Of a stretch of 31,580 nt of DNA, positions 28,073 to 28,804 are shown in pieces (positions within the stretch are counted from its first letter, which is position 1; every line of letters starts with the position of its first letter). The translations under genes and the position numbers were made by a program. The notes below the pieces were generated by a model that was not told where the DNA came from, did no database searches, and worked only from the letters and a program-made list of their open reading frames with translations. This DNA is from a virus (lineage: Duplodnaviria; Heunggongvirae; Uroviricota; Caudoviricetes), in IMG/VR virus record IMGVR_UViG_2700989363_000008, positions 1 to 31,580 of that record; one strand, 5' to 3'.

Positions 28073-28741
28073 ATGGTGAAATTAATGAAAAAAAACACAG
28101 ATGATGGGGCTAAAATTTACACACCACTTACCCTAAAGCTTTATGACTGGTGGGTTTTGGGAGTATCAAATCGGCTTGCATGGGGATGTCCTACAAAGGA
28201 ACACCTTCTTCCACACTTTCTGGAACATTTAGGTAACAACCATCTGGATATTGGTGTTGGAACTGGGTTTTACCTTACTCACGTACCTGAGAGTAGTCTG
28301 ATATCTTTAATGGATTTGAACGAAGCTAGCCTGAACGCGGCATCTACAAGGGCTGGGGAATCAAAAATTAAACATAAAATTAGCCATGATGTTTTTGAAC
28401 CTTATCCCGCGGCGTTACATGGTCAATTTGATTCCATTTCCATGTTTTACCTTCTTCACTGCCTGCCTGGAAATATATCTACAAAAAGCTGTGTAATACG
28501 CAATGCGGCGCAGGCCTTAACTGATGATGGAACTCTATACGGAGCCACAATTCTTGGCGATGGAGTTGTGCACAATAGCTTCGGTCAAAAACTGATGCGC
28601 ATTTACAATCAGAAAGGCATCTTTTCAAACACAAAAGATTCCGAAGAAGGCTTAACACATATACTCTCAGAGCATTTCGAGAATGTTAAAACCAAGGTTC
28701 AAGGTACTGTAGTAATGTTTTCCGCTTCAGGGAAAAAATAG
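28073..28741 (+). CDS. Class I SAM-dependent methyltransferase (222 aa), cargo gene
   Basis: Motif I-like LDIGVGTGF; start 28073 or 28085; AT-rich; followed by a strong 11-bp-stem hairpin (28749-28781). Substrate unknown. Confidence 0.6.
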   Translation: MVKLMKKNTDDGAKIYTPLTLKLYDWWVLGVSNRLAWGCPTKEHLLPHFLEHLGNNHLDIGVGTGFYLTHVPESSLISLMDLNEASLNAASTRAGESKIKHKISHDVFEPYPAALHGQFDSISMFYLLHCLPGNISTKSCVIRNAAQALTDDGTLYGATILGDGVVHNSFGQKLMRIYNQKGIFSNTKDSEEGLTHILSEHFENVKTKVQGTVVMFSASGKK

Positions 28742-28804
28742 CATCCAACCGCAGCACGTTCTTGCTTAAGACGTGCTGCGGCATAATCCCAATGATTACT
28801 CCCT

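Follow-up and report, generated by a model that had tools for sequence, protein, structure and literature searches.

The methyltransferase gene and its surroundings

The stretch of DNA analysed here (31,580 nucleotides (nt); 'the window') comprises positions 1 to 31,580 of the Caudoviricetes virus record IMGVR_UViG_2700989363_000008, and towards its right-hand end it carries a gene for a class I S-adenosylmethionine (SAM)-dependent methyltransferase. In the initial annotation, made from the sequence alone, this gene was described as an AT-rich open reading frame (ORF) of 222 amino acids (aa), located between a truncated tail-fibre-assembly (tfa) ORF and an invertase remnant and on the opposite strand to both. 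The ORF is present at 28073-28741 on the + strand and passes Pfam thresholds, a later start that gives 218 aa being more probable, and both of its neighbours are confirmed as remnants. The gene is an intact ybcY, known in Escherichia coli K-12 as b0562, a pseudogene of prophage DLP12, and its product is the methyltransferase of PHROG 2132. The features of the gene and its immediate surroundings are these:

28017-28072, + strand: putative methyltransferase promoter region, from a scan for the sigma-70 consensus
28073-28741, + strand: class I SAM-dependent methyltransferase ORF, 222 aa, beginning at the ATG (28073) used by RefSeq and by the initial annotation
28075-28079, + strand: candidate Shine-Dalgarno sequence GGTGA, preceding the ATG at 28085
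28085-28741, + strand: YbcY-family methyltransferase coding sequence from the conserved start, 218 aa
28088-28095, + strand: A8 homopolymer, immediately 3′ of the ATG at 28085
28749-28781, no strand assigned: GC-rich hairpin, with an 11+3 bp stem, one bulge, and a 4-nt GCUU loop

Every residue of the protein encoded in the window agrees with RefSeq WP_000239881.1 (annotated as 'class I SAM-dependent methyltransferase') and with gp26 of the lambdoid phage ev243 (YP_009910063.1; 100 % identity in both cases), and the protein matches phrog_2132 over the full length of the profile (positions 1-218 of 218, E 7e-157). Among Pfam families it scores best with Methyltransf_12 (37.6 bits, gathering threshold 30 bits, E 3.8e-9), and the gathering thresholds of Methyltransf_23, Methyltransf_25, and Methyltransf_11 are also passed. 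At the DNA level, 27756-28893 is 97 % identical to the K-12 DLP12 segment containing tfaD, ybcY, and tfaX, with the same arrangement, ybcY being convergent with one tfa and divergent from the truncated one.

Two start codons are available to the gene. M5 (ATG 28085) is the first residue of the family alignment, of the PHROG profile with its 218 positions, and of every chromosomal orthologue, and it is invariant in 51 aligned family sequences; a start there, giving 218 aa, is therefore more probable than the 222 aa version. The coding sequence has a GC content of 40.9 % (35 % at third codon positions) against 45.6 % for the window, bearing out the AT-rich composition first described. Because there are thousands of near-identical copies, and because the ratio of nonsynonymous to synonymous substitutions (dN/dS) is approximately 0.1 against the orthologues, the ORF is a genuine gene rather than a chance one.

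In the alignment, the K-12 pseudogene lacks two bases that are present in the intact copy in the window: the G of the start ATG at the conserved position, and a single A from the adjoining A8 tract. The A8 tract was considered as a phase-variation switch, and this was ruled out, the eight residues being kept in 71 of 75 copies; the tract is better seen as a mutational weak point. A separate 45 aa ORF at 28686-28823 on the − strand, antisense to the 3′ end of the methyltransferase gene and to the hairpin, corresponds to the RefSeq hypothetical protein WP_001309429.1, which is also present in two comparison loci (L098 and L099); it is probably a spurious call.

Putative promoter and shared 3′ hairpin

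The best sigma-70 match upstream of the gene is TTGATT (28044), a 17 nt spacer, and TATAAT (28067-28072), with agreement at 10 of the 12 consensus positions. It ends at 28072, abutting the ATG at 28073 and lying 12 nt upstream of the ATG at 28085. An alternative match, TTAACC and CATAAT separated by 16 nt, is present at 28017-28044. For K-12 ybcY, TTGATT-17-TATAAC is listed as a constitutive RpoD promoter in a study using genomic systematic evolution of ligands by exponential enrichment (SELEX), in which an H-NS site is also located in the spacer between ybcY and tfaX (PMC3946193). The −10 box reads TATAAT in 18 of 75 copies, including that in the window, and TATAAC in 57.

The hairpin described in the initial annotation as a strong structure with an 11-bp stem following the gene begins 8 nt past the methyltransferase stop codon and 14 nt past the stop codon of the − strand tfa remnant, which ends at 28796. 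It is a real structure: on the + strand the 81-nt stretch containing it folds at −28 kcal/mol (z −4.25), which none of 200 shuffled sequences equalled, and on the − strand at −33.4 kcal/mol (z −4.45). As a canonical intrinsic terminator it was rejected; no U-tract lies next to 28749-28781 on either strand, and for this reason it was not called by the terminator scan. The hairpin and its spacer are also found 3′ of tfa in phages without the methyltransferase gene, and it therefore belongs at least as much to the 3′ end of tfa. It is a 3′ structure that the two convergent genes have in common, rather than a terminator specific to the methyltransferase gene.

Distribution of ybcY in E. coli

Complete E. 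coli genomes were searched for DNA at least 95 % identical to 28040-28800. The ybcY DNA is present in 3840 of 5426 genomes (71 %), with a median of one copy per genome, and 4950 of the 4959 places in which it occurs are chromosomal. Given this prevalence and the 100 % identity to WP_000239881.1, the gene is not novel cargo. It is already known and ordinary; the very same gene has been annotated in thousands of genomes, and the window adds no novelty to it.

The usual locus has the order gpJ, lom, stf, tfa, ybcY, tfa fragment, alpha/beta hydrolase, ompT, envY, ybcH, and nfrA. The gene is also carried by active phages (ev243, 2G7b, and the PhiR series). It is always located within a module of approximately 1.1 kb, consisting of a tfaX-like fragment, the AT-rich promoter region, ybcY, the hairpin, and a tfa 3′ end. 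Among 92 copies of the module, the promoter, the methyltransferase gene, and the tfa 3′ end are present in all 92 and the tfaX-like fragment in 91; all 47 of the prophage copies that were translated are intact.

In phage ev243, ompT and a 494 aa TAP-like alpha/beta hydrolase gene are located between the ybcY module and the integrase gene (2864-5488 of the ev243 record), and the same arrangement of ompT and hydrolase is seen in L098 and L099 (3864-6488). Since these genes are inside the inducible ev243, the ompT region described as 'chromosomal' in E. coli represents the cargo end of a prophage of the DLP12 type. Five PLSDB records with the module (CP054240, CP054246, CP054248, CP054249, and NZ_OY754386) also carry chromosomal genes, either trpL/trpB or nfrA-ybcH-ompT. 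Such contents suggest chromosomal contigs wrongly assigned to plasmids, and plasmid counts for ybcY are therefore inflated.

In the literature, ybcY was found to be mentioned incidentally only and no functional study was found. The contexts are promoter and H-NS binding in the genomic SELEX study (PMC3946193), use as a landmark by ompT, deletion lists, and one negative phenotype test.

The carrier phage-plasmid and acquisition of the module

Positions 1-27923 of the window are an N15/phiKO2-like telomere phage-plasmid, encoding a protelomerase, a CyRepA1 replication protein, SopA, and SopB/ParB. This backbone shares 97 % identity with E. coli plasmids, among them NZ_CP148365 and CP056845, and with the phages PhiR46_1 and YDC107_1. 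The methyltransferase gene is absent from N15-like relatives such as CP056845, PhiR46_1, and YDC107_1, in which a full tfa comes immediately after sopB, with a macro-domain gene and stf next in order. Absence from all close relatives together with the lack of a phenotype, which the initial annotation would have taken as telling against its reading, is thus half borne out: the gene is absent from the close relatives of the phage-plasmid, but elsewhere it is strongly conserved. The features flanking the gene are these:

27756-28016, − strand: truncated tail-fibre-assembly ORF (TfaX-like), 86 aa, upstream of the methyltransferase gene
27769-27844 and 28818-28893, no strand assigned: 76-nt direct repeat of the tfa 3′ end, from a repeat search (86 % identity, spacing 1049 nt)
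27789-27923, no strand assigned: recombination substrate and crossover zone, from overlapping homologies
28796-28893, − strand: 3′ remnant of a full-length tfa (tfaD-type), the last 27 codons and the stop codon, from translation
28894-29146, − strand: N-terminal remnant of a DNA invertase (Pin/Gin-type serine recombinase; Resolvase, E 4.6e-15)
29350-31580, both strands: invertible tail-fibre cassette of the Mu-G/e14-P type, running off the end of the window

Homology of 99 % to a methyltransferase-free N15-like plasmid extends as far as 27923, and homology to the DLP12/ev243 module begins at 27756/27789. These homologies overlap, and therefore the crossover was within the conserved tfa 3′ end and the 86 aa ORF is a hybrid, its 3′ 168 nt being derived from the tfa of the N15-like backbone and its 5′ part from a DLP12-type tfaX fragment. 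The module was thus acquired by homologous recombination between the backbone tfa and the tfaX-like fragment, and the same exchange brought in the module, the e14/Mu-type invertible cassette, and the dead invertase. The best chromosomal matches to 27770-29950 have 98 % identity. As a ready-made module was swapped by tfa homology, the gene was not inserted into a tail-fibre/invertase scar, as had first been suggested; the invertase deletion, present in 11 of the 92 copies of the module, is a separate neighbouring lesion.

The similarity of the 86 aa ORF to Caudo_TAP is confined to the C-terminal part of that family (profile positions 75-130 of 131, E 2.8e-25); the ORF also matches phrog_2341, a profile of 88 positions, at E 8e-57. 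Its first 30 or so residues are not tfa-like. This truncated tfa recurs as a unit to which a separate PHROG has been assigned, accompanying ybcY in 91 of the 92 copies, and it may be either a functional small protein or a mere conserved recombination scar.

On the other side of the gene, homology to full tfa (L098 and K-12 tfaD) stops at 28893, and the Trp codon just upstream of the 27 remaining codons has been changed to a stop. The 76-nt tfa direct repeats bracket the methyltransferase gene, the right-hand copy being inside the tfaD-type remnant. The invertase remnant, which matches phrog_8275 and phrog_125 (DNA invertase), joins the 27 remaining tfa codons without a gap, at approximately 28893. 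Its reading frame is interrupted by two stop codons (VV*KLD*LG), and the C-terminal half has been deleted. The invertase is dead, and it adjoins the methyltransferase module without being part of it. Since the junction seen in the window is shared by those 11 E. coli copies, it predates transfer to the phage-plasmid.

In the tail-fibre cassette, the + strand encodes a variable fibre C-terminus (gp37_C domain), a small ORF, and a tfa, and the − strand encodes a second tfa and fibre C-terminus; an inverted repeat is present at 30114-30272 and 31045-31203 (71 % complementary). With the invertase inactive, the cassette should be locked in one orientation.

Two further features of the backbone were observed. 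A perfect hairpin with a 10-bp stem and T-rich tails (TATCCCCTGCATTGCAGGGGATA, 27728-27750), located between the convergent sopB/parB and tfa, is a candidate bidirectional terminator of the N15-like backbone. The region 24000-25500, between the protelomerase gene and sopA, is strongly AT-rich (GC 30-36 %); it is presumably here that telomere resolution takes place and the partition site of the N15-like replicon is located.

Fold, motifs, and functional class

The AlphaFold2 model of the protein (predicted local distance difference test score 90.6) has a seven-stranded Rossmann core with an aromatic N-terminal helical lid of approximately 50 residues. Motif I (D59-I-G61-V-G63-T-G65) and the acidic residue D81 are invariant in the 51 sequences; with the seven-stranded fold and a Pfam score over threshold, these place the protein among the class I enzymes. 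In all, 53 alignment columns are invariant, and they include H105, a cluster formed by Y16, Y24-D25-W26-W27, N33, W37, and C39, and the pair H129-C130.

Structure and profile searches, the check suggested in the initial annotation, placed PmtA, JHAMT, and UbiG nearest, none of them close. PmtA and JHAMT rank first by Foldseek against the PDB, and a profile search of the PDB gave JHAMT at E 2e-5 and UbiG at E 1e-3. With NCBIfam there were weak matches only (CpaM, RquA, PmtA, BioC, UbiG, and UbiE), all far under their cut-offs, and in the viral structure library BFVD the closest match has 16 % identity and none is informative. The fold and sequence neighbours (PmtA, DhpI, JHAMT, and UbiG) are all small-molecule or lipid methyltransferases, and the protein belongs to the small-molecule-type class I methyltransferases.

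It was correctly recognized from the start that the protein is not of the DNA methyltransferase type. No (D/N/S)PP(Y/F/W) motif is present, the PP dipeptide being entirely absent from the protein, and there is no PC motif context and no motif IV. No DNA methyltransferase is among the top fold matches. Further, the 218 aa form a single domain, which leaves no room for a target-recognition domain.

The PmtA of Rubellimicrobium thermophilum (PDB 8ys9) has 15-18 % identity to the window protein. In that enzyme, a conserved C-terminal helix is functionally important and the active-site set includes Tyr10, Ser120, and His147 (PMC11446283). The helix is absent here, the model ending in beta-strands 202-210 and 213-221. 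Tyr10 may correspond to Y16, but the phosphate-binding pair is unmatched, Ser120 and His117 falling on L128 and F125 by a simple motif I offset. Against the R-type PmtA model NF045882, which has a cut-off of 390 bits, the window protein scores 15.6 bits, and the best family member reaches E 1.5e-7. Assignment to the PmtA family was rejected on the score, on the missing C-terminal helix, and because distant members do not converge on PmtA. The resemblance is the best single lead and yet it fails the family tests; as an analogy it has a low probability.

Among solved structures, the best sequence matches are JHAMT (PDB 7ebs/7ec0; 21 % identity) and UbiG (PDB 4kdr; 17 %), both of which act on hydrophobic isoprenoid substrates. 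The match runs from motif I to post-III, including the F-Y-x-L-H segment, and is limited to the SAM-binding core; JHAMT has an H-W pair where the window protein has H-C. The quinone methyltransferase families were rejected on score, with RquA at 16.9 bits against a cut-off of 175, UbiG (TIGR01983) at no more than 27.5 against 103, and UbiE-type families far under 216.

The wider family and selection on ybcY

At E ≤1e-10, 799 representative clusters were matched among 1.8 billion representatives. Single-gene orthologues with 50-75 % identity are found in Salmonella, Enterobacter, Klebsiella, Yersinia, Erwinia, Pantoea, Proteus, Pseudomonas, Dyella, and Xanthomonas, and the chromosomal orthologues, widespread in Gammaproteobacteria, occupy unrelated neighbourhoods, as do those at 50-68 % identity in all of these genera but Klebsiella and Pantoea. 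In Salmonella, the genes on either side of the orthologue encode a PMT_2 glycosyltransferase and a cytochrome b561-type protein (Ni_hydr_CYTB). Relatives at 88-90 % identity are located in a plasmid or insertion sequence (IS) context in Salmonella and at a prophage end in Citrobacter, and a copy in Aeromonas is flanked by IS elements. Some eukaryotic relatives are fused to cytochrome P450.

For the neighbour analysis, the ORFs within 3.5 kb of 93 orthologous loci were clustered. No partner family common across genera was found around these loci. Conserved neighbours were therefore set aside as a functional clue; only within-genus synteny and generic families (LysR, short-chain dehydrogenase/reductase, ABC-F, CorA, and FadB) recur. 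A tfa gene adjoins only the copies that are at least 99 % identical, and none of the orthologues at ≤75 % identity (85 of the 93 loci) has a tfa neighbour. A methyltransferase-esterase pair was also considered, with a hydrolase beside ybcY in ev243 and E. coli, a COesterase in Erwinia, and a hydrolase in Enterobacter, and was rejected, the proteins being unrelated (BLASTP E 0.85), TAP-like peptidase in one case and carboxylesterase in the other. An Rce1-like neighbour is present in the Salmonella IS context and in Yersinia and is not general. From these neighbourhoods, the family is one of stand-alone genes.

The dN/dS ratios against the Citrobacter, Enterobacter, and Klebsiella orthologues are 0.09-0.11, and ybcY is thus under strong purifying selection.

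Proposed role of YbcY

It is probable that ybcY is self-transcribed lysogenic-conversion cargo, the product of which methylates a small molecule that is likely to be hydrophobic or foreign. The gene would be a moron, a self-contained transcription unit with its own sigma-70 promoter, probably modulated by H-NS, and would be expressed in the lysogen independently of the phage late genes. The marks of such a gene that were observed are the 10/12 promoter match, the published SELEX assignment, the hairpin without a U-tract, the GC content of 40.9 % against 45.6 %, and the absence of the gene in the N15-like relatives. YbcY is predicted to be a soluble cytoplasmic enzyme of approximately 24 kDa. 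It would bind SAM through motif I (D59-G61-G63-G65), D81, and H105-D106, and would hold the methyl acceptor under the aromatic N-terminal lid (Y16, Y24-D25-W26-W27, N33, W37, and C39) and the H129-C130 loop. As single, partner-less genes have been repeatedly mobilised, in prophages, on plasmids, and in IS islands, the substrate would be a common gammaproteobacterial metabolite or lipid or an exogenous compound. A hydrophobic small molecule or xenobiotic is favoured, the O-, N-, S-, or C-methylation of which would alone benefit the lysogen. It is very unlikely that the function is tied to the tail fibre or that the substrate is DNA.

Several points weigh against this role. The promoter rests on a consensus match and the genomic SELEX assignment, and a transcript from TTGATT-17-TATAAT would begin approximately 5 nt before the ATG at 28085, without GGTGA, and be nearly leaderless. 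Given the H-NS site, the gene may be largely silent in laboratory conditions. The incidental mentions in the literature give no substrate, product, or phenotype for ybcY. In addition, the median isoelectric point of the family is 8.9, mildly basic, which is compatible with nucleic-acid or membrane binding.

The initial annotation had allowed a small-molecule, RNA, or protein substrate. The sequence and fold neighbours, all of them small-molecule or lipid enzymes, support the first of these, and the other two are unlikely without being negligible. On an RNA or protein reading, the target would be a universal macromolecule, whether tRNA, rRNA, release factor, or ribosomal protein, and its modification would tune translation in the lysogen. 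The protein has no RNA-binding or extra substrate-recognition domain, consisting of the Rossmann core and the lid; the isoelectric point of the window copy is 6.9; its best sequence and fold neighbours are small-molecule enzymes; and the P450 fusions of the eukaryotic relatives point to small-molecule chemistry.

Slightly less likely again is that ybcY is a neutral hitch-hiker, without a role for phage or host, which would owe its persistence only to its place between tfa repeats in a DLP12-type prophage remnant that lies beside ompT and is passed on vertically. Most copies are at one locus (nfrA-ybcH-envY-ompT) and are at least 99 % identical, which fits vertical descent; K-12 has a ybcY pseudogene and no known defect; the H-NS site suggests silencing (PMC3946193); and in the single phenotype test in the literature Hha toxicity was unchanged in a ybcY mutant. 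Neutral persistence is, however, hard to reconcile with the dN/dS of approximately 0.1 across the orthologues, or with the 47 of 47 intact prophage copies and the A8 tract that is in frame in 71 of 75. The gene has also been retained in inducible phages with tight genomes, such as ev243 (45.6 kb), and the family has been independently mobilised on plasmids and IS islands.

That YbcY is a membrane-lipid methyltransferase is distinctly improbable. It would be responsible either for N-methylation of phosphatidylethanolamine (PE) head groups, in the manner of R-type PmtA, or for methylation of a quinone or isoprenoid lipid, in the manner of UbiG, Coq5, or RquA, and the envelope of the lysogen would be altered alongside the neighbouring envelope cargo, lom and ompT. 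PmtA is among the nearest folds, and the scores against the PmtA and quinone families are as given above. The more specific proposal, that YbcY is a phage-borne envelope-lipid methyltransferase (acting on PE head groups or a quinone/isoprenoid lipid) that remodels the membrane in most E. coli lineages and, together with lom and ompT, affects antimicrobial-peptide resistance or superinfection, is more doubtful still. If this were true, no lipid-modifying lysogenic-conversion enzyme of the kind would have preceded it, and E. coli would have its first source of methylated PE.

Methylation of the tail fibre or of its chaperone would explain the constant site between tfa genes, and the tfa linkage is indeed invariable in all copies that are at least 99 % identical; this is nevertheless very improbable, as the gene is on the strand opposite to the tail genes with its own putative promoter, the orthologues at ≤75 % identity lack a tfa neighbour, and the linkage is explained by recombination between tfa repeats. 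Least credible of all is a DNA methyltransferase or counter-defence enzyme that shields phage DNA or disarms a host defence, the latter a role raised in the initial annotation and not upheld here: orphan DNA methyltransferases are frequent in phages, but the DNA methyltransferase motifs are missing and the sole PADLOC match is a weak one to mad2 (E 0.003, 14 bits), with no defence-system match.

Significance

The gene is intact in most E. coli lineages, including enterohaemorrhagic and uropathogenic strains, and is dead in K-12. K-12 is a natural ybcY null, and therefore the question of the substrate is easily testable. The remaining interest is biochemical and concerns the substrate of a conserved stand-alone enzyme under purifying selection. 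The window itself is a clean example of tfa homology moving cargo between unrelated temperate phages, in this case out of a lambdoid prophage in a chromosome and into an N15-like telomere phage-plasmid.

Comparison with known prophage cargo

The closest known counterparts are the ybcY modules of K-12 DLP12 and of phage ev243, which have the same flanks as that in the window: a tfaD-type 3′ end, the hairpin, the promoter, and a tfaX-type fragment. The K-12 module is at the chromosomal ompT locus, whereas that in the window is beside sopB on an N15-like linear phage-plasmid and, unlike in K-12, its downstream tfa has been cut to 27 codons and fused to the dead invertase.

More broadly, self-transcribed cargo such as ybcY is proposed to be would resemble the lambdoid morons (lom, bor, and the cargo of the tail-fibre region), with which it shares separate control or an orientation opposite to the late genes among which it lies. 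Like them, it has a promoter-like element, a flanking hairpin, lower GC content, and patchy presence, with transfer by way of the flanking phage genes. It differs in its product, for lom and bor encode envelope proteins, whereas YbcY is predicted to be a cytoplasmic enzyme.

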